Source: Atractiella rhizophila (Eukaryota). From it: a stretch of DNA of 33,137 nt. The translations under genes and the position numbers were made by a program. Below the pieces are notes generated by a model. That model saw only the letters and a program-made list of their open reading frames with translations. It was not told where the DNA came from and did not search any database. Each line of letters starts with the position of its first letter. Positions within the stretch are counted from its first letter, which is position 1. The DNA lies in NCBI GenBank assembly GCA_021432655.1, contig MU271677.1, positions 1 to 33,137 of the forward strand, read 5' to 3'. Of this stretch, positions 12,332 to 24,800 are shown in pieces.

Positions 12332-13229
12332 TCAGTTCAATGCCTCAACAATTGCCTCAGCGAGCCTATTCATCAAGCACATTCATCTCTCAATCACATT
12401 ATCGAAGAACCAAAGCTCACGGTTTAGCACTAGGGGGATTCTGCCCAGTGATGAGCTTCCCATCCTTGACAACGTGGGGCTCATAGTCCCCAGCTCGTTG
12501 AAAAAGAGCTCCTTTGGCAGAGAGCACATCCTCGAGCAGGAAAGGTACCTTGTCAGTCGCGTCGATCGCCGCCTCTTCAGAGTTAGTGTACCCAGTTAGT
12601 CTCTTCTCCAACACGAGGTACTTCCCGTTAGAGAGGATGACATTGACGAAGACTCCGGGACCGTGACAAACTGCTGAGACGACCTGGTTGTGCGAAATGA
12701 GCTTTTCATCATCCTTGGGAAGAGGCATCGTACCTTTCCTGCTTCCCAGAACTCAGCGATCAGTTTCTGAGAGATCTCGTCGACGGCCAAATCGAAGATA
12801 GGGCCATGACCACCGGGATAAAAGATCGCGTCGTATTCTCCCGATTTGCCTGTGAACTCGCTCAACGCGGTGGTATTCTTCCACACATGTTCCTGTCTCC
12901 CGACATCACCTCTGTATTCTTCAACATGTTGAAAAACGCACATTCTTTTCCAAGAACTCGAGCGACTCGCCGTCCTTTCCCTGCGTGGACAATTCAATAG
13001 ACCACGAGTCCAATGGCGCTTCACCGCCTTTGGGAGAGGCAAAGGTCATTTCATATCCGGCTTTCTTGAACACATTATAAGGGTGGGCGAGTTCAGGCTA
13101 TTCCCAAACAAATGGTGACTAGGTCAATAAACTCATGGGAGAAGAAAAGAAGGGTACAAGAAACCATCCGCCGAGAGAGTCGTCAGTGTGAGGATGGGAG
13201 GTGAGGACGACGAGGACTTTTTTGGACAT
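12332..13229 (-). CDS. DJ-1/PfpI family protein (Hsp31-like glyoxalase III / class I GATase-like), paralog 1
   Basis: MSKKVLVVLTSH...GWFL|PELAHPY, ASPKGGEAPLD, YDAIFYPGGHGP, SAVCHGP (catalytic Cys-His), LITGQNP. Spliced stop at 12332-12334. Confidence 0.95.
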
Positions 13230-13913
13230 TTAGCTCAATTTGCTTAGAACCTTCACTCCTGCTGTTCAATGCTTCGTCTTCAAGGGCATGAACCAGCTTT
13301 TATAGATTACGTGAGGACCCCTCCACCTCCACCAGGCGTTCACGGTGCGCACTTTCTCTTAATGATTCCATTTCATTTCTGAACAAGTTCTTTCTGACTG
13401 CACCACCTCCAATAGCGCCCCGGCGCCGCTGTTCCCGAGCTAATCTTGAAGAACTTGCTTTTGGCTTTGGTTCGTTCCCCTTCTCATCCATCCTACTCTC
13501 ACAATCTCGACAAAATGTGTATTCATCTACGGTTTACACATGTCTCTGTGAAGGATCCAGCTCTCAAACGTTCAAACAGTTGATATTCGGTTAACGTGAA
13601 ATCCACTCGAATCAAGACGGTAATAATCATCAAGAGATCACTATCTGTAGCCCAGGCACCACTCCTCGACTGTTGCCCCATGCAAAAATGGGGTTCTACG
13701 TCAGAGGTAACGCCAGCTTTCTAGAGCTCTTCATCAGACTGGCTGGAAGATTCGGATGGTATGCGAAGTCAACGCTGACTAGTTGACCTTTGCTAGCATT
13801 TCAATGCTACTTCAAGTTTACAAAGTATATCTTTGATATTTCCCAATTTGATACCGTTATCTTTGTCCAGTTTGATACGCAATTGTTGACTAAACTACTT
13901 TCGTTCGATTCCT

Positions 13914-14815
13914 TCAGCTCAGTGCCTTCACAATCGCCTCAGCGACCCTATCGCGTCAACAAAGTCATTTCAATTCGGTGAACATGATGAATACTTACGG
14001 TCCAGCACTAGCGGGATTTTGGCCAGTAATGAACTTGCCATCAACGACAACGTTAGGCTGGTAATCCGCGACTTTCGAAAAGACGGCGCCTTTGGCAGCG
14101 AGCGCGTCCTCGAGAAGGAAAGGTACTTTCTCAGTCGCCCCAATCGCTGCTTCTTCGCTATTCGTATACCCCGTCAGTTTCTTCTCAGATACGAGATCCT
14201 GTCCATTGGAGAGGACAACGTTGCGGAAGACGGCTGGACCGTGACAGACTGCTGAGACGACCTGGCGCCGAAAAGTTTAAGTCCAGTTGAGCTTGACTGA
14301 GTGGGACGAACAGTACCTTTCCGGCTTCCCAGAATTCCGTGATCAGTTTCTTGGAGGTCTCGTCGATGGCCAGATCAAAGACAGGGCCGTGACCACCAGG
14401 ATAAAAGATCGCATCGTACTCCCCAGACTTGCCTGAGAACTCGCTCAAAACCTTGGTGGTCTTCCAGACTTGTTCCTGTGCTCCAACTTCATCAACTCTA
14501 CATCCTCCACCACTGGAAAGGGAAACGAAACGGACATTTTTTTCCAAGAATTCCAACGATTCGCTGTCCTTTTGCTGCTTGGAGAAATCGATAGAAAACC
14601 AATCCAACGGCGCTTCGCCACCCTTTGGAGAAGCAAACGTCAGGGAGTATCCCGCCTTCTTAAACACATTGTAAGGATGAGCAAGTTCGGGCTACCTCAA
14701 GATTATGAGTGAAGTGAGTTCGATCGGGCAAAAGAGAACGTACGAGGAACCATCCGCCGAGAGAATCATCGGTGTGAGGATGAGAAGTGAGGACGACGAG
14801 GATCTTCTTTGTCAT
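13914..14815 (-). CDS. DJ-1/PfpI family protein (Hsp31-like), paralog 2
   Basis: MTKKILVVLTSH... with the same motifs (PELAHPY, GGHGP, SAVCHGP, ITGQNP) and the same intron positions as paralog 1. Confidence 0.95.
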
Positions 14816-15230
14816 ATTGATCGATTTGGTGTGCAGTTGTTACGAGTACCGTGAGAGTGTTAGATTGATGCTTGACTTTCAAGATGGGGTATGTTGCCAG
14901 TTTTTATAGAATGACGTACCGAGAGGTCCCACTTCCCGAAGTGGAGCTTTCAGGCCGGAAAACGTGAAAAGAAGTGGACCAGCGGGAATCTTTGGGAGGG
15001 AGCATGAGTAAGAGCGCAGGCTCTGGAACCGTGTAGTGGACGTGGAGGGATGGGCGGAAGGGCTCAGGGAGTCTGAGAGATGGACGACGCAGGCAATTAT
15101 GAAAAAAACGAAGAAATACATTCTACAAAGTTGTGCAAAGATATCTTCAACATTCAACAAGAGCAAGTCGAAATATTCACAAAATTTCACAATTTACAAT
15201 TAGTGATGGTCTATCCCCTCTCAATTATAA

Positions 15231-17265
15231 TCAGGTGCTAAACAAGCCTTTGCCTGCCATAGTCTGGTCAAACATTTGCAAAGCCGCCTGCCCATACTCG
15301 AGCGTTCCATGAGTGTAAGCCGGCACCTGTGTTGTATGGTCCAACACATAGAAGTATCATGGTCAGCCCTCTACCAAAGCTAAGCGGCGTAAGGAAGGGA
15401 AACAGACCTCGTGTCCTGCACCAAAGACTCGCACGTAGCTGAATGACCCCGCATTGAAATACAACCCTGCGGGCTGTCCAGCGACTGTCCAATTCTGCAA
15501 TGATTGCGATTGAGAGGCGATATCGAGGGAAGTGTTGAAGACCCCAATCATCCGCTCAATCCCAATGTAGTTAGCAAGGTAGTCCTGTTCACCGACCAAC
15601 AACGGATGGAGATCATCAGTTTTTTCGCGTAATAAAGGAGGGAAAGAAAGAGGAGGAACTGACGGCGTCTCCAACATAGATTAAAGTCTTGACTCCAGCA
15701 TCGATGACCTTCTCCAAAGCTGGTCTAGCATTCTTCATCCAATCACCAGTGGCTATGAATGAACCATAAACGAGTTCGTTGAACTGCTTCCAGTCCTCTT
15801 CTGCTCCAATCGTATCCTTGATCCCCTTCAGATAGTTGTCAAGGGCTGGCGGGAACGGGTCGGGGGCGACGTGTGGTATAAAGTACGGGTTTTGGGAACC
15901 GACGAGAGGAGTAAAGATGCCGTTCTGGCAGTAGAATTGGGCGATGGCGCAGTCTTCGGCGGAAGCACCATCGTAACATGCTTGAATCTACAGACAGTTG
16001 ATCATTTACTATTTACGTCTTTTATCGGGAACGGACACTTACCTGGTCCTTGCAACCACCCGCGAGAGAATAGCTGATATTAGAAGCTGCAACCGCTTGT
16101 GGGATGGTAGTTGGCCCATAGGGATTATTGAGGGCATAGTCCAAATAACTTCCATATTGGATGAGCGGATCCTATGTTCCATTCAACGCGAGACTAGAAA
16201 AGGATGGAATAGAAACTCACAGTCAAGCCATCACCCACCGCCAACACCTCCAAATTGATCCTAGTACCGTTGAACTTGCCAGCGTTTATCTGGTCGTTCT
16301 TGTCCAAAATATATGAAGCGAACTCCGGCCCGTACTTGCCACCATAACTGTTCCGTCACCAAAGCAAAGTCATCAGCCTGACGGCTTTTAGCAGTATAAA
16401 ACTTGAGAAACGGACGATTCGGTCCAGATGCCCACGGAACGATTAGCATATTTCGAGAACGTGGCATCGGAAAAGAAGATCTGTAGGAAAGCCCAAATGT
16501 CTACTGCAGCTTGTTTCGCAGAGGACACTGCGGTTGCGTTGCCATAGGAGAAGCCTACGCCGACCTAAGTGGATCCCGGTATTGTTAATACTGAAAAGAG
16601 GACAGATTAATGCGGAAACGAACGGGTTGATCGATGAAGATGATGTTGGAATTGCTATTCCATGACATTGGATTTAAAGCTACATCCGAAGAGTCGTTGA
16701 GGATCTTGCAGGGTCCATGCGATTGGAAGAGGCCGAGCATAGATGAGGAACCTTAGTGTGTCTCTCAGCGATACATTATAGTGAGTGATGAAGAACAATA
16801 CCAGGTCCGCCATTCTACCGATGTGGCAAAGTCAGGTTGAGGAATGCAGTAGAGTGAGAAGGACTTACAAACCACAGAGCCAACGGCGCAGTTTGAGAGT
16901 TATTCCTGGCCTCGAAGAAGTAAAAGAAGAGATGTTTGTCCACCGCCAAATCTGCATATCCCGAAGCCTGATAAACGTTTGGCGTAGTCTCTACGATCCA
17001 CCCATCCATTGAGTCAGCGCCATATATTCGTACTTCAGAACAACAAAGTGAGCACACCGCATATCCCACTGTTCTGTGTGAACCGTAAACCTCCAGCTGC
17101 TGTCAGGTTTGGAGAGAGGTCCGTTGTTGGCCGGTCAAAGAAGTGTGTGGGAAAGTTGGTGGGGATGCCTCCTAAAACGCCATTGATGACTGGTATGTCC
17201 GAGGCGAGGGTGGGGAGGGATGTGAGGATGAGAAGAGCGAGGGAGTGCGTGAGTCTGAGGTACAT
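15231..17265 (-). CDS. Secreted serine carboxypeptidase S10, paralog 2 (10 exons, including 13-nt micro-exon 16802-16814)
   Basis: Signal peptide [64 protein letters not shown]-terminus [18 protein letters not shown] is collinear with the gene at 61-1980. Confidence 0.93.
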
Positions 17266-17668
17266 GTTGAGATCGTAAAGTCGTGAAGGGTGAAGATGCT
17301 TTGGTTTGATTGGAGAGTTGCAGCTTTTATCCCCACCTCCCGCGCCAAGATTGAAGCTGTGAGAGCGTCATAAAAGCAACTCTATGACGTCTCTAATATC
17401 ATTCGTATTTGTTCTGGTTTCTCCGAGGCAGGTCGACACGAAAGAGAGATGTATCTCCTTGTTCACTCCTACTTATCTGATAAGGAAGTGACTCTCTCTG
17501 ATAAGGGAGGTCGGAGTTGCCTGCTTCGGACGTTCGAGTCAGATGAGTGGAGTCATCAGGGAGTCATTTTTTCCCGAGTCCCTTGCACAAGGCAAAGTTA
17601 TCTGTAGCATCTCCTTTATGCCAAAGAACACGCACTTATAGCTTCGTCCAACGTTCGCCAGCTCATCC
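17266..17668. promoter_or_regulatory. Divergent promoter between peptidase 2 (-) and the WOPR-bZIP gene (+), with GATA and Gcn4-type sites
   Basis: CTTATC-T-GATAAG palindrome 17472-17484, GATAAG 17500, TGACTC 17489, GAGTCA(T) at 17536, 17550 and 17561, ATGACGT near 17383, TATA-like GATAAAAG on the minus strand near 17323-17330. Confidence 0.6.
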
Positions 17669-19428
17669 ATGATTCTCATGCATCAAGCCAATCCAAACAT
17701 GGTGCGTGTACTTCTCTTCACTGTGCTGCGATTCCTCTAACAGTTTCCCCCTCAACGATGTGGTAACAGCACCTGCATCCCACTTACCATGGATCTCTGC
17801 CCACCAATCGCTCCGCCATTCTCCTTTTCCAAGCCTGTCGCCTTAACATCCTCCCAGAACTCACTCGCGCTCTCCTCCCTTCAGAAATTCCAGACCTCAT
17901 CAAACATGGCGCCGTATTTGTCTTCGAACAGGGTATCTCTGGCATCGGATTAGATGGATGGAGGGATGGTATCTCTGTCAGTATTTTTTCATTCAATTTC
18001 TAGCCGTCACTTTAATCTATTCTATCACCAATTCAATCACGTTCTTTATACTTAGCATGTCATATACTGACAAAGGGTATACATTGCATGGGACAGTGGA
18101 GCAAGCCGTACTTCTCGCACGGCTTCCAATTCCAAGACGAAGCTACTCCATCCAGTCGATCCAACTCCCCTCCTCTCACCCGCCAAATGTTCACCGCCGA
18201 CTCCCCCTCGACCTCCGAGACCTTCCACCTCGTTGCCTTCTTCTCTCGCTCGCTCCTCTCCTCCCTTTCCGCCGTCGAGGACGATCCAAACATCTCCCGG
18301 CTCATCATCCCTCCTCATTTTTTTAGGCCAACCGGCTTCGGCGTCGGCCATCCGCTCAATGATACAGAAGCGGGGAGTGACGTTCGAACAGCCCCAAGGA
18401 CGATCCCTCCTCCTCCAGCCCCTTTGGGACCTAGCAACTCGTGGACGAGCACAGGGAGCGGGAGTAGCGTAGATGAACTCTCTGGAACTGCTCGTGAGGA
18501 GAGTGCCGGAGGGAGCGTGAGCATGAGCGTGGGTGAGGGTGCGAGTGGGAGCGGTAAGAGGAAGAGAGGGAGAATAGCGACCACCCACCTCGACTTTCAA
18601 GCACCGACCGAACCAAGGTTTGTCCCTTTCCTTCCTTCTACACTCCCAACTCGGCAGGTAAACTAACTCCTCGTACCCCACAGACAATACCTTTCCGACT
18701 CGAAGACGTCCAAGAAGGACCTCCCAGCTTTCGCTAAACGCTTCATCCGTGACGTGTCCCGCCCCGAGAAGGGTATCACGAGCGAGGAAGGGGCGGAGGA
18801 GTACATCGCGGATAGCATCGAGAAGAAGCGAAGGCAGAACACCATCTGTCCGTTCCCTCCCTTCTCTATCCTCCGCAGCACCAGATGGTGATAGCTGATG
18901 TTCCTGCTGTATTTCTGCTGTGACGTGATGCAATGGGGGGAACAGCGGCTCGCAAGTCCAGAGCTCAGAAAGCAGAACGTTTGAAGAACCTCGAACAGAC
19001 TCTAGCTATTAAAGAAGCGGAAGAGCGTCGACTGCTTTCCCTGGTCGCTTTTCTCGAAGGAAGGTTGAAAGAATCGGAGGCGCGAGATCGGGTTCTCCCC
19101 TCCGCGCCGAGTGTTGCCCCTAGTGATGGTGATCGTTGTCGCTGTGGTGCGGAGAAGAGAGAAGAGGATGACAGGATGGACGTGGAGAAGATGGAGGTGG
19201 AAGACGAAATGGGGACGGAGATCAAGAGATTGAAAGAGGAGAGCGCGGGGTTGAGGAGGACGTTGGAAGTTTTGGAGAGAAGCAATAAGAGCTTGAGAGA
19301 GGTCCAGAGAGCCGGAGAGGAAGAAATCGTACGTTTTTGCCGTTCTGTCTGTGTAGGATTCGCAACCTGATACGCACCGATGACAGGAGGATTTGAGGGA
19401 ACAGTTGAGAAGAGCGAAAGGTGGTTAG
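17669..19428 (+). CDS. WOPR (Gti1/Pac2)-like domain fused to Gcn4/Cpc1-like bZIP, copy A (~449 aa)
   Basis: Exons 17669-17701, 17770-17976, 18097-18617, 18684-18847, 18946-19328 and 19387-19428 total 1350 nt in frame. WOPRa: PTYHGSLPTNRSAILLFQACRLNILP...GAVFVFEQGISGI..WRDGIS|WS. WOPRb: LTRQMFT...HLVAFF...DPNISRLIIP. bZIP: APTEPRQY..SKTSKKDLP and EKKRRQNTISARKSRAQKAERLKNLE plus zipper. Confidence 0.82.
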
Positions 19429-19526
19429 CTCTACGTTCGATGTGAGGAGTCTTGCTATGATATCGTAACTCTGCTTGGAATCGTTTTAGGTTATGTGTTG
19501 ATGCGTGATTAATCGAGGTATGAAGA

Positions 19527-21791
19527 AGGGAGTGCGTGAGTCTGAGGTACATGTTGAGATCGTAAAGTCGTGAAGGGTGAAGATGCTTTGGTTTGATTGG
19601 AGAGTTGCAGCTTTTATCCCCATCTCCCGCGCCAAGATTGAAGCTGTGAGAGCGTCATAAAAGCAACTCTATGACGTCTCTAATATCATTCGTATTTGTT
19701 CTGGTTTCTCCGAGGCAGGTCGACACGAAAGAGAGATGTATCTCCTTGTTCACTCCTCTTTATCTGATAAGGAAGTGACTCTCTGATAAGGGAGGTCGGA
19801 GTTGCCTGCTTCGGACGTTCGAGTCAGATGAGTGGAGTCATCAGGGAGTCATTTTTTCCCGAGTCCCTTGCACAAGGCAAAGTTATCTGTAGCATCTCCT
19901 TTATGCCAAAGAACACGCACTTATAGCTTCGTCCAACGTTCGCCAGCTCATCCATGATTCTCATGCATCAAGCCAATCCAAACATGGTGCGTGTACTTTT
20001 TCATCACTGTGCTGCGATTCCTCTGACAGTTTCCCTCTCAACGATGTGGTATCAGCACCTGCATCCCACTTACCATGGATCTCTGCCAACCAATCGCTCC
20101 GCCATTCTCCTTTTCCAAGCCTGTCGCCTCAACATCCTCCCAGAACTCACTCGCGCTCTCCTCCCCTCAGAAATTCCAGACCTCATCAAACATGGCGCCG
20201 TATTTGTCTTCGAACAGGGTATCTCTGGCATCGGATTAGATGGATGGAGGGATGGTATCTCTGTCAGTATTTTTTTCATTCAATTTCTAGCCGTCACTTT
20301 AATCTATTCTATCACCAATTCAATCACGTTCTTTATACTTAGCATGTTATATACTGACAAAGGGTATATATTGCATGGGACAGTGGAGCAAGCCGTACTT
20401 CTCGCACGGCTTCCAATTCCAAGACGAAGCTACTCCATCCAGTCGATCCAACTCCCCTCCTCTCATCCGCCAAATGTTCACCGCCGACTCCCCCTCGACC
20501 TCCGAGACCTTCCACCTCGTTGCCTTCTTCTCTCGCTCGCTCCTCTCCTCCCTTTCCGCCGTCGAGGACGATCCAAACATCTCCCGGCTCATCATCCCTC
20601 CTCATTTTTTTAGGCCAACCGGCTTCGGCGTCGGCCATCCGCTCAATGATACAGAAGCGGGGAGTGACGTTCGAACAGCCCCAAGGACGATCCCTCCTCC
20701 TCCAGCCCCTTTGGGACCTAGCAACTCGTGGACAAGCACAGGCAGCGGGAGTAGCGTAGATGAACTCTCTGGAACTGCGCGTGAGGAGAGTGCCGGAGGG
20801 AGCGTGAGCATGAGCGTGGGTGAGGGTGCGAGTGGGAGCGGTAAGAGGAAGAGAGGGAGGATAGCGACCACCCACCTCGACTTTCAAGCACCGACCGAAC
20901 CAAGGTTTGTCCCTTTCCTTCCTTCTACACTCCCAACTCGGCAGGTAAACTAACTCCTCGTACCCCACAGACAATACCTTTCGGACTCAAAGACGTCCAA
21001 GAAGGACCTCCCAGCTTTCGCTAAACGCTTCATCCGTGACGTCTCCCGCCCCGAGAAGGGTATCACGAGCGAGGAAGGGGCGGAGGAGTACATCGCAGAT
21101 AGCATCGAGAAGAAGCGAAGGCAGAACACCATTTGTCCGTTCCCTCTCTTCTCTATCCTCCAAACCAGATAGTGATAGCTGATGTAACGTGGTGCAATGG
21201 TGGGAACAGCGGCTCGCAAGTCCAGAGCGCAGAAAGCGGAACGTTTGAAGAACCTCGAACAGACTCTAGCTATTAAAGAAGCGGAAGAGCGTCGACTGCT
21301 GTCCTTGGTCGCTTTTCTCGAAGGAAGGTTGAAAGAATCGGAAGCGCGAGATCGGGTTCTCCCCTCCGCGCCGAGCGTTGCCCCTAGTGATGGTGATCGT
21401 TGTCGCTGTGGTGCGGAGAAGAGAGAAGAGGATGACAGGATGGACGTGGAGAAGATGGACGTAGAAGATGAAAGGGGGGGCGAGATCAAGAGATTGAAAG
21501 AGGAGAGCGCGGGGTTGAGGAGGACCTTGGAGGTTTTGGAGAGGAGCAATAAGAGCTTGAGAGAGGTCCAGAGAGCCGGAGAGGAAGAAATTGTAAGTTT
21601 TTGCCCTTCTGTCTGTTGTAGGATTCGCAACCTGATATGCTCCGATGGCAGGAGGATTTGAGGGAACAGTTGAGAAGAGCGAAAGGTGGTTAGCTTTACG
21701 TTGAACGTGAGGAGTCTTGCTGTGATATCGTAACTCTGCTTGGAATCGTTTTAGGTTATGTGTTGATGCGTGATTAATCGAGGTATGAAGA
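19527..21791 (+). repeat. Direct tandem duplication, unit B (2265 bp)
   Basis: Near-identical to unit A. Differs by scattered substitutions, 1-2 nt indels and a ~23 nt shorter intron 4. Confidence 0.97.
19954..21693 (+). CDS. WOPR-bZIP fusion, copy B
   Basis: Same six-exon structure and splice sites as copy A, frame intact, TAG at 21691-21693. Confidence 0.82.
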
Positions 21792-21874: not shown

Positions 21875-24800
21875 CTACAGCGCCTTCCCTCCTTCCCGCA
21901 CGAACTCCCTAAACCTCTTTCCCTCCTGCATCAGCTCCTCAAACGTTCCATCCTCCACCACCCGTCCATCATCCACACTGACATCGTCTCTTCAACTGCG
22001 TGATCAGATGAAAACGAAAAAACGCACAACACAACCCTATCGCATCCCCTGATGGTGCTCAAACGATGGGCAATAACGACCACCAGGGTATTCTGCTCGT
22101 CCGCTATTCGACGAATCGCACGATTAATGAGCGCTTCGGACCGTGTATCAAGCGCAGAAGTCGCTTCGTCCATGCTATCCGTCACCAATGAACCACATGC
22201 ACTCATAAATGAGACGGAGGGTTAAGGACAAGCGCACATCAAAATTTTTGGTTTCCGAATCACAGCTCGTGCGATCGCCAGCCGTTGCTTCTGCCCTCCC
22301 GATAACTGGGCTGCCTGTGTCGCATCACCACGTCATCAGTCCAGCATAAACAACAGCGGGAGCTTGGACCGACATTAGCGTCCCAGCCGCCTTTAACCTC
22401 ATTCAGAAACTCGCACTGCGCAAGTTCTGCCGCGTTCCTCACTTCTTCGTCCGTCGCATTAGGAAGCCCATATGCTATATTCTGCTTGATGCTCCCTACG
22501 CGCCGAGTTTCTCAATTGCAAAGGAGGACGTGAGAGATGGGACGAACCGGAGAACAGCATTATCTCTTGCGGGACGATTGAGATTATGTTTCGCCATTCC
22601 TCTACCTCAAGCTCCCTCACATCCTTACCATTCACCAAAATCTGGCCTTCCTGCGGGTCATAGTAACGCATCATTCTAAGTGATCGCATCAACAACTTAA
22701 TCCTTCGAGCTCTTAAGGAATGAAGAGAGAACTTACAAAGCAGCGACACTGCTCTTCCCACTCCCACTTCTCCCAGTCACGGCCACTAACCTGCCTTTCG
22801 CCGGCGACAAAGCGAGATCGAGAGATTCCAAGATAGGAATGTGAGAGCGGGAGGGATAAGCGAACTTGATGTTCTGTAATTTGAGCGAAATGGGGGTTGT
22901 TGATTGTGCCAAAGCTGTCGAAGTGGGAGGAGGGAGGGCCAGTGTAGGCGATCGCAAGTGTACAGAGATCTAGCTTCTCTGTCAGTATAAGAAGCGCGTT
23001 GAGAGGTGAACGAGCGTACAGGTCTGATGTCTAGTAGGGCGAAGACACGCCTCGAGGCTCCGAGTCCTTTCATCAGCGAGCTGTGCGCTCATCAGTAATG
23101 CAGAAGGAGAGGAAGGAGACGTAAGAATGAGCAGTACCTAAAGTAACTTGTGACGGCTTCACACTTCAGTCAGAGCATGTCCCTTCTTGGGGAACAGAAA
23201 GACTCACCGACTAATGAGCTACCAACGTAAAAAGTGTATAGAAGCAATGAGGTGAGCTCCCCAACAGTTATTTCACCCAACTGAACCAAATGGCCACCAT
23301 AGATAAGGAGTGCAAATAATGTACAATTACCTGACCCCTAAGCATGAGGGGAGCGAACTACGAGAGTCAAAACGACGCACCAACGAATCCGAATGCTCCG
23401 TAGAACGCGGCATTAGCCCATCCTTCTTTCTTGCTGAGCTCAAACACGTTCTCGCTAGCCTTCTCAAACCGATTTACCTCATACGGTGTCGCATTGAAGG
23501 CGTGAACTGTTAGGTTATCACACATGCATCAGAGTCAAGATGATGTGCGCAGATAGCAGAAACGAGTCTGACGCACCGGTCGTTTGACCTCTCATTGTTT
23601 CTTCTCCCACGCTGGTCATACCCGCGATCGCGCTCTGCACCTTTTGAGACAATTTTTTGAGATATCGTCCATACAAGGTGGTGGCAAGAGCGGCAGGCGG
23701 GACGAGCGTGAGCATGAGGAGTGTCATTTTCTCTGTCCATTCCTGTATCAGCGAGAAGCAGATGAGGAGGACGGGGACGAGAAGGACGTACGGGAGATAA
23801 AGAACATCATGCCCATCCCCGCTCCAGCAATAACGACGCTCCTCAATCCCTCCAAGAGGTCCCTCGACACCAAGTTCCCGAGGAGGGTGGCATCCGAGTT
23901 CAAGCGCGCAAGGACGTCTCCAGTTCCCTTCAGCTCTCGTTCGTCCTTCTCCTTCTCCTTCTCCTTCTCCTTCTCCTTCTCCTTCTCCTTCTCTCCTTCC
24001 CTCACCTCCACCTTGCCCGTCTCCCCCTCCTCCGCCTTCTCCTTCTCTCCAACCTTACCAGCCTGGGCCGTGTTCATGGCCTTAGACGCGTTGAGAGCGA
24101 CCAAGTCCCTCTTTGCCGAATCCGCTCCAAGGACGCGAGCGAAGCCCTCGTCCCTCAACCGTTTCACTATCCGCTCCGCACTGATACGGAGCAAGACTAC
24201 GCGGGCGGTGTTGGCCAGTGCTCCGGCGGCTAGGACGATGGGTAGACCGACGAGGATGTAGGTCGGAGGTCCGGTGGAGGAGGAGAAGATGTCGAGGAGT
24301 TTGCCGGCTAGTTTGGGGATGGTGAGTGAGACGGAGGAGGTTATGGCCATCTGTTAGTTCAGTTAGCAGTGCTACTCCCTCGCTGTGCTTTTCGATCAAT
24401 ATTCGAAAGAAGTGGGACCGAAGTAAGTGCCTTTTATCCCAACCAATAAATTAAATATGCCATGACAATCCCTGTATGAACGCGTCAAGACAAGCAGGAT
24501 GGAAAGAGACAATAACACGCTCTCTTCGCAAGTGCACAAGAAGTCAAAGGCGAATCGGCATGTCTGTCTTCGCAAAGTCGATCAACAGAAATTACGGATA
24601 ATTCAGTCATTCAACATGTTAGGTAGCAGCAGAGTAGAGTAGGAGGTCACGCGCTTTATTCTGTGGCAAAGATTGCTCACGCAGCACGTCACGACAACAA
24701 GAAGTCAGAATGATAGCAGGAGGCAAGCTAGGCGCATCCCGTAGTAGATTCTCTTGGTGGACATTGCATTTAAGCGACAAACAGCTCGGGATATGTTTCC

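Follow-up and report, generated by a model that had tools for sequence, protein, structure and literature searches.

A tandem gene pair in the root-associated fungus Atractiella rhizophila (Pucciniomycotina) encodes proteins in which an N-terminal WOPR domain is joined to a probable basic leucine zipper (bZIP). The pair lies on a 33-kb contig (GenBank assembly GCA_021432655.1, contig MU271677.1, positions 1 to 33,137), the whole of which was analysed and is referred to here as the window. We read each copy as one transcription factor of 449 amino acids with two DNA-binding modules, and we put the probability of this reading at roughly 70%. In many fungi, WOPR proteins act as master switches that govern morphology and host association, and work on them has treated them as DNA binders with a single domain. 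The protein described here is a new combination of two known modules, expressed, under selection and, as far as the data reach, restricted to this species.

An earlier note on this DNA, made from the letters alone, had proposed two copies of a hidden gene with six exons, and its coordinates, exon ends and reading frames hold. In both copies the exons (Table 1) join to 1350 nucleotides (nt) in frame, or 449 codons and a stop, and all ten introns, five per copy, start with GT and end with AG. Exon 3 of copy 1 holds the rest of WOPRa and then WOPRb (to residue ~160) before passing into a disordered Ser/Gly/Pro linker. Exon 4 contributes a pre-basic segment and the first half of the basic region (K-K-R-R-Q-N-T-I), while exon 5 encodes the second half of the basic region, the leucine zipper, a Cys-containing spacer (C-x-C), and a second long helix. 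Removal of intron 4, which measures 98 nt in copy 1 versus 75 nt in copy 2, produces the junction N-T-I-S/A-R-K-S-R (slash, exon boundary). A reading of copy 2 that keeps its 75-nt intron 4 was discarded, as it would insert 25 foreign residues, with stops, into the basic region.

The gene is indeed hidden in the public annotation. The two public models (317 and 320 residues) are both labelled 'hypothetical protein' with Pfam PF09729 as the only domain; they share exons 1–4 and end inside intron 4, leaving the C-terminal 141 residues unannotated. The copy 1 model uses a nearer acceptor inside intron 4 and reaches a stop nine residues on, and the copy 2 model runs unspliced into the intron and stops twelve residues on. 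Both models split the basic region in its middle. The NCBI protein KAH8916142 is 100% identical to exon 3 of copy 1, and the adjoining KAH8916143 is the second copy.

RNA-derived contigs of four public runs (X1, X2, X4 and X19) were aligned to copy 1, and in these contigs all five introns are removed at the proposed boundaries. The joint across intron 2, which rebuilds the predicted W-R-D-G-I-S/W-S, lies in an X19 contig of 730 nt, which also takes in exon 3 and whose last 12 letters equal the start of exon 4. The joint across intron 3 is found in an X1 contig, in addition to that 12-nt loose end in X19. For intron 4, the joint 18847>18946 is carried by a 411-nt X19 contig at a depth of 261; X19 depth is zero over positions 18856–18929 of the intron and 205–261 in the flanking exons. 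The same joint is present in X2, where the split Ser codon has a synonymous change, and a joint to the annotated intron 4 acceptor was found in none of the four runs. The quoted WOPR strings and the rebuilt intron 2 junction are present in the database protein P0001, and the peptide strings quoted across introns 3 and 4 are likewise all present, with their joints in the run contigs. An X19 contig with copy 2 letters extends into the DNA past 21791, and copy 2 is therefore transcribed as well. The gene is expressed in several independent runs, root and soil metatranscriptomes among them. These data confirm the six-exon, 449-residue model as a correction of the public annotation.

The two copies differ at 30 of 1350 coding bases and in four residues (T108I, E392D, M397R and T399G). 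By the Nei-Gojobori method, 24.8 of the differences are synonymous and 5.2 non-synonymous, giving a ratio of non-synonymous to synonymous divergence (dN/dS) of 0.06 at a synonymous divergence of ~8%. Residues 309–449, which lie wholly beyond the public models, show proportions of synonymous (pS) and non-synonymous (pN) differences of 0.139 and 0.013, respectively. Between the copies, intron 4 contains a 23-nt insertion or deletion (indel) and the exons contain none; neither frame is broken, and each of the ten splice sites is preserved. Purifying selection has thus acted on both copies over the whole frame. Of 21 variant positions within the RNA contigs, 16 are synonymous; nine of the 21 equal the copy 2 letter and are therefore not independent. 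The five non-synonymous variants are located in the linker (residues 168, 226 and 229) and the inter-helix spacer (residues 369 and 377), and none falls in the WOPR domain, the basic region and zipper (residues 300–352) or the second helix. Divergence between the copies is uneven: pS is 0.026 for residues 1–160 versus 0.139 for residues 254–449, and the upstream 429 nt hold only 3 base differences and 2 gap positions. With the 5' half much more alike than the 3' half, gene conversion seems to have covered the promoter and the WOPR part.

The N-terminus is a genuine but very divergent WOPR domain, as had been predicted. The Pfam profile Gti1_Pac2 (PF09729) matches P0001 with 54.3 bits (cut-off 23.6; E 2.4e-14; profile positions 1–79 of 168), and exon 2 alone gives 46.7 bits (E 5e-12; profile positions 1–62 of 168). 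A phmmer search against the PDB returned YHR177W (9.4e-5) and Wor1 (9.8e-5). WOPRb lies outside the Pfam envelope. Its segment E-T-F-H-L-V-A-F-F aligns to H-L-I-x-Y-Y of YHR177W and Wor1 in weak second phmmer stretches, and H124, L125 and L107 agree with near-invariant WOPR columns. Additionally, AlphaFold2 (AF2) predicts WOPRb strands at residues 108–116 and 121–129 with a predicted local distance difference test (pLDDT) score above 94.

The AF2 model of the WOPR domain was built on a 91-row alignment and has a pLDDT of 88–98 over residues 11–160, falling to ~50 with predicted disorder further on. Compared with the PDB by Foldseek, its top four matches are the WOPR-DNA complexes of Wor1 and YHR177W (E 3.7e-10 to 2.8e-9; target TM-score up to 0.80; root-mean-square deviation (rmsd) 2.1 Å), including 4qtj_A (E 3.7e-10, target TM-score 0.79, rmsd 2.1 Å, 154 columns) and 4m8b_R (E 6.3e-10), while the fifth match reaches only E 0.39. 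The comparison with Wor1 and YHR177W that the earlier note had proposed thus shows a predicted WOPR fold for residues ~11–160, although the model leaned on the WOPR alignment and the fold match is partly circular, supportive and not independent.

The second module, a basic region and leucine zipper said to be created by splicing, is borne out by its motif and its predicted helix. After splicing, residues 302–314 read K-K-R-R-Q-N-T-I-S-A-R-K-S-R, and the signature N-x2-S-A-x2-S-R occupies residues 306–314 of both copies, where it is present only once intron 4 is removed. We take a bZIP basic region to be defined by N-x7-R with small residues at +3 and +4 and Ser or Cys before the Arg. The pattern N..[AS][AS]..[SC]R finds no match in the six-frame window (66,270 residues) and occurs once in 151 WOPR proteins (54,222 residues), there without basic flanks. 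Leucines stand at +10, +24, +31 and +45 from the signature Arg, the first of these being the canonical zipper start, and Leu occupies four of the six d positions (L324, K331, L338, L345, S352 and L359).

Structure prediction is consistent with this assignment. AF2, run on exon 5 without an alignment, predicts helices at exon residues 2–48 (47 residues) and 67–126, each with a pLDDT of ~96, and the first helix spans the basic half and the zipper continuously. In a language-model search with exon 5, the nearest named clusters are bZIP families (scores 0.77–0.84), which is a lead only. A prediction of the two-chain exon 5 complex gave scores of 0.02, 0.48 and 0.03 and speaks neither for nor against dimerisation. 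Motif and modelled helix together strongly suggest that residues ~300–352 form a bZIP in which one helix would run from the basic region into the zipper, with a second helix of roughly 75 residues beyond the C-x-C spacer.

To place this architecture among known proteins, we used an exhaustive HMMER search with P0001 over 1.84 billion representatives, which returned 761 proteins at E≤1e-3. The closest relatives among the matches listed are 31–36% identical. None of the best 150 of the 761 matches aligns past query residue 222, so nothing among the matches listed resembles the pre-basic segment. In a Pfam scan of the nearest 149 of the 761 relatives (E≤1e-3 for 128, E≤1e-2 for 21), Gti1_Pac2 was present in all 149 and a bZIP family in none, an absence that is only moderately informative because public models can be truncated, like the two described here. 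Only two of the 149 are modelled with another DNA-binding domain, in both cases upstream of the WOPR domain. P0022 has a Forkhead match (36.6 bits) and P0132 a borderline Zn cluster (20.9 bits; cut-off 21), and these may be real fusions or merged gene models. As the earlier note had supposed, a WOPR and bZIP fusion appears to be undescribed: none was found in the literature as judged by titles and abstract openings. The survey of Shelest 2017 (PMC5415576) covers the transcription factor complements (TFomes) of 191 fungi and describes 12 dual-specificity types that make up 1–4% of TFomes, including Zn cluster with bZIP, bZIP with HLH, bZIP with C2H2 and bZIP with homeodomain; the terms 'WOPR' and 'Gti1' are absent from its main text.

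Several observations weigh against reading each copy as one two-module transcription factor, and they concern the transcript, both domains and the conservation of the fusion. As to the transcript, the predicted splicing of all five introns stands, but no one contig covers all six exons; the joints chain via overlapping contigs. The copies are 98% identical and the contigs may be chimeric, and X19 contigs do mix copy 1 and copy 2 letters. Additionally, X1 has a root-metatranscriptome contig (18850–19000, depth 2) in which intron 4 sequence passes unspliced into exon 5; it may represent pre-mRNA, DNA or a retained-intron isoform. Retention of intron 4 would give a WOPR-only protein ending mid basic region, like the public models, which themselves end inside that intron. 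The truncated proteins of 317 and 320 residues could then be the main products, made through intron 4 retention or the alternative acceptor, with the fused form minor. We consider this quite unlikely. The X19 joint at depth 261 is accompanied by zero depth within the intron, the joint to the annotated acceptor is absent from all four runs, and a low-depth unspliced metatranscriptome contig can be pre-mRNA or DNA. Furthermore, exons 5 and 6 are under purifying selection in the proposed frame, which is unexpected for untranslated sequence, and the 23-nt indel is confined to intron 4.

As to the WOPR domain, besides the partial circularity of its fold match, its Pfam score is the lowest of 150 scanned (the other 149 score between 58.5 and 213 bits). 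A set of 89 relatives shows 44 columns with at least 75% conservation, and the domain is off consensus at 17 of them. The changes include R45A, R51I, R74G, R85Y, E65Q and Y93Q, whereas R44 is retained; R45, R51, R74 and R85 are each 90–96% conserved in the 89 relatives. Two studies (PMC13729134, PMC4567300) describe known WOPR proteins as binding DNA through the WOPR domain, with the key contact made by a conserved-loop arginine in the minor groove. With these conserved columns changed, four arginines among them, WOPR-type DNA binding by the protein is therefore uncertain. A scan for TTAAAGTTT, which we take to be the WOPR binding motif, at up to one mismatch gave 8 matches versus 6.3 expected, with none near the gene and none in either promoter.

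As to the bZIP, the profile searches used separate halves, with intron 4 dividing the basic region. At E≤10, Pfam found no bZIP match in exon 4, exon 5 or the first 50 residues of exon 5 from either copy. With the exon 5 half, phmmer against the PDB returned only FlgN (E 0.41) and neither GCN4 nor any other bZIP chain at E≤10, and Foldseek matched the exon 5 model to generic long-helix proteins only (best E 0.46). Two zipper d positions, 331 and 352, are Lys and Ser. The lack of a significant profile or PDB match for the post-intron half, the generic helix matches and the two d positions that are not hydrophobic would suit a WOPR factor that ends in a coiled-coil tail for oligomerisation and has a basic patch for nuclear localisation; in such a factor the N-x7-R match is fortuitous and the tail is not a DNA-binding bZIP. 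This alternative is unlikely in our view. It leaves to chance a full signature that follows K-K-R-R, has Leu at the canonical +10 position and finds no match in 66,270 control residues; the signature is also kept by the two copies and by the variants in the RNA, and the nearest named language-model clusters are bZIP, again as a lead only. Since neither half gives a significant bZIP match, we regard the C-terminal part as a bZIP with high, though not conclusive, probability, on motif and helix grounds.

A closer likeness to Gcn4/Cpc1, which the earlier note had seen in this region, found no support in the searches and is left as an unsupported kinship, although the searches covered halves only and that negative is therefore weak. 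The pre-basic segment offers no further guide: residues 236–317 find only themselves, and residues 236–308 have no usable language-model match.

As to conservation, word-indexed protein searches with exon 3 (among longer proteins), with P0001 (among proteins of near length) and with residues 236–317 of P0001 found only the window's own protein. Metagenome scans yielded 150 (P0001) and 598 (exon 5) pattern stretches, of which tblastn confirmed none. No relative of the fused part was thus found in the searched databases, and conservation of the fusion beyond the species is without support. A missing orthologue and a WOPR domain that scores lowest of those scanned are what a recent functionless chimera would show, arisen as an exon-shuffling accident and transcribed but decaying. 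Such a chimera is very improbable given a dN/dS of 0.06 between copies that are ~8% diverged at synonymous sites, two intact frames, ten retained splice sites and expression in several independent runs.

Each promoter contains four TGACTC cores (one on the plus strand, three on the minus strand) within 78 nt, together with two GATA-type CTGATAAGG sites. We take TGACTC to be the Gcn4 site. The RNA contigs begin at 17602–17604, ~36 nt past the end of the copy 1 cluster. Four TGACTC cores within 80 nt occurred in 0 of 1000 first-order Markov simulations, while over the whole window the core is not enriched (24 found versus 25.7 expected). As duplicates of one another, the two promoters count as one observation; positions 17494–17713 and 19779–19998 are 100% identical. 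The identical stretch includes a seven-codon upstream open reading frame (ORF), which lies 27 nt before the main ATG in the transcribed 5' leader.

If each copy acts as a two-module factor, the zipper, perhaps aided by the second helix, would dimerise the protein, and the basic regions of the dimer would grip a short palindromic or half-palindromic site. Dimerisation would bring two WOPR domains to the same promoters, where the divergent domain could add a second, altered DNA specificity. Alternatively, DNA binding may be left to the bZIP, and the WOPR domain may now have a chiefly regulatory or protein-contact role. The promoter cluster, with its TGACTC and GATA-type sites, would suggest that a Gcn4-type bZIP and a GATA factor control the gene, and the Gcn4-type bZIP acting on the promoter could be the protein itself. 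Such a protein might couple nutrient sensing to a developmental switch, or impose dimerisation on the WOPR domain, as the earlier note had speculated. In the most far-reaching version, this would be the first natural factor in which a zipper forces the WOPR domain, usually described as acting singly, to dimerise beside a working bZIP. It would read a composite of a bZIP half-site pair and WOPR motifs and feed back on its own two promoters through the four TGACTC cores, so that amino-acid or nitrogen signals, arriving via the TGACTC and GATA sites, reach a cell-fate switch of the WOPR type in a root endophyte. We regard that full scheme as doubtful.

The two-module reading makes the gene pair a candidate lifestyle regulator in a plant-root fungus, and the fusion a ready-made experiment on WOPR domains that are dimerised and tethered to a second specificity. 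The pair also illustrates how automated gene models can hide domain architectures, as a mis-called acceptor removed the probable DNA-binding module from both paralogues. The same annotation error may hide fusions in relatives, so that absence from the databases is weaker evidence than it looks.

The genes owe their pairing to a tandem duplication with a unit of ~2.29 kb, recovered by a direct-repeat scan as families D1–D4, D6 and D7 (spacing 2264–2287 nt, identity 95–100%), and each unit contains one six-exon gene. Coordinates of all features are collected in Table 1.

Table 1. Features of the WOPR–bZIP gene pair in the window (positions counted from the first letter of the window; exon joints are given as last letter > first letter)
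Feature	Position	Strand	Evidence or content
Duplication unit 1 (promoter, copy 1 gene, 3' end)	17240..19526	+	Direct-repeat families D1–D4, D6, D7
Copy 1 promoter motif cluster	17477..17566	.	Four TGACTC cores and two CTGATAAGG
Seven-codon upstream ORF, copy 1 leader	17618..17641	+	Inside RNA contigs 17602–17700
Copy 1 exon 1 (residues 1–11)	17669..17701	+	Joint 17700/1>17769/70 in runs X1, X2, X4
Copy 1 exon 2 (residues 12–80), WOPRa	17770..17976	+	Pfam Gti1_Pac2 match from the exon alone
Copy 1 exon 3 (residues 81–254)	18097..18617	+	Joint 17976>18097 in X19 contig
Copy 1 exon 4 (residues 254–309)	18684..18847	+	Joint 18615/7>18682/4 in X1; X19 loose end
Copy 1 exon 5 (residues 309–436)	18946..19328	+	Joint 18847>18946 in 411-nt X19 contig
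Copy 1 exon 6 (residues 437–449 and stop)	19387..19428	+	Joint 19328>19387 in X19 (2 contigs) and X1
Duplication unit 2 (promoter, copy 2 gene, 3' end)	19527..21791	+	Direct-repeat scan
Copy 2 promoter motif cluster, same make-up	19764–19851	.	Motif scan
Copy 2 gene	19954..21693	+	449 residues; four residues unlike copy 1
Copy 2 exons	19954–19986, 20056–20262, 20384–20904, 20971–21134, 21210–21592, 21652–21693	+	

The surrounding genes are ordinary and include a PIG-X gene, a Zn-cluster gene near 6.0–6.6 kb and a kinase fragment. A minus-strand ABC transporter gene (21900–24400; ABC_tran and ABC_membrane matches) is convergent with copy 2, and the 3' end of the copy 2 transcript lies at least 135 nt beyond 21791, towards that gene. 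An older tandem duplication (12416–13242 / 13994–14828; spacing ~1580 nt; 75–82% identity) holds a diverged DJ-1/PfpI-like pair, and within it an ORF on the minus strand (14188–14691) has a weak, below-cut-off match to the ThiJ/DJ-1/PfpI families.

Compared with known systems, the protein shares the N-terminal layout of Wor1, YHR177W/Mit1 (S. cerevisiae), Ryp1, Sge1, Ros1 and OsaA, with WOPRa and WOPRb separated by a short linker, and it has the W-x-D-G..W-S and H-L-x-x-[FY]-[FY] blocks of WOPR regulators. Its predicted fold superposes on that of Wor1 from Candida albicans with an rmsd of 2.1 Å. Unlike its WOPR relatives, it scores only 54 bits (versus 58–213), with 17 of 44 conserved columns changed, four arginines among them, and unlike the 149 relatives scanned it has, at its C-terminus, a further module of DNA-binding type.

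The bZIP part would resemble the Gcn4/Cpc1 type, for which we take N-T-x-[SA]-A-R-K-S-R to be typical, in this pattern and in the start of the zipper 10 residues after the invariant Arg. The clustering of TGACTC cores, presumed Gcn4 sites, in the gene's own promoter recalls the same system. Unlike in Gcn4/Cpc1, the bZIP stands behind a WOPR domain and a 140-residue linker, and a second long helix follows the zipper. GCN4 has several upstream ORFs, whereas a single short one is present here in the leader as covered by the RNA contigs. In joining two different DNA-binding-type domains in one polypeptide, the protein is like the dual-specificity fungal factors described in PMC5415576.

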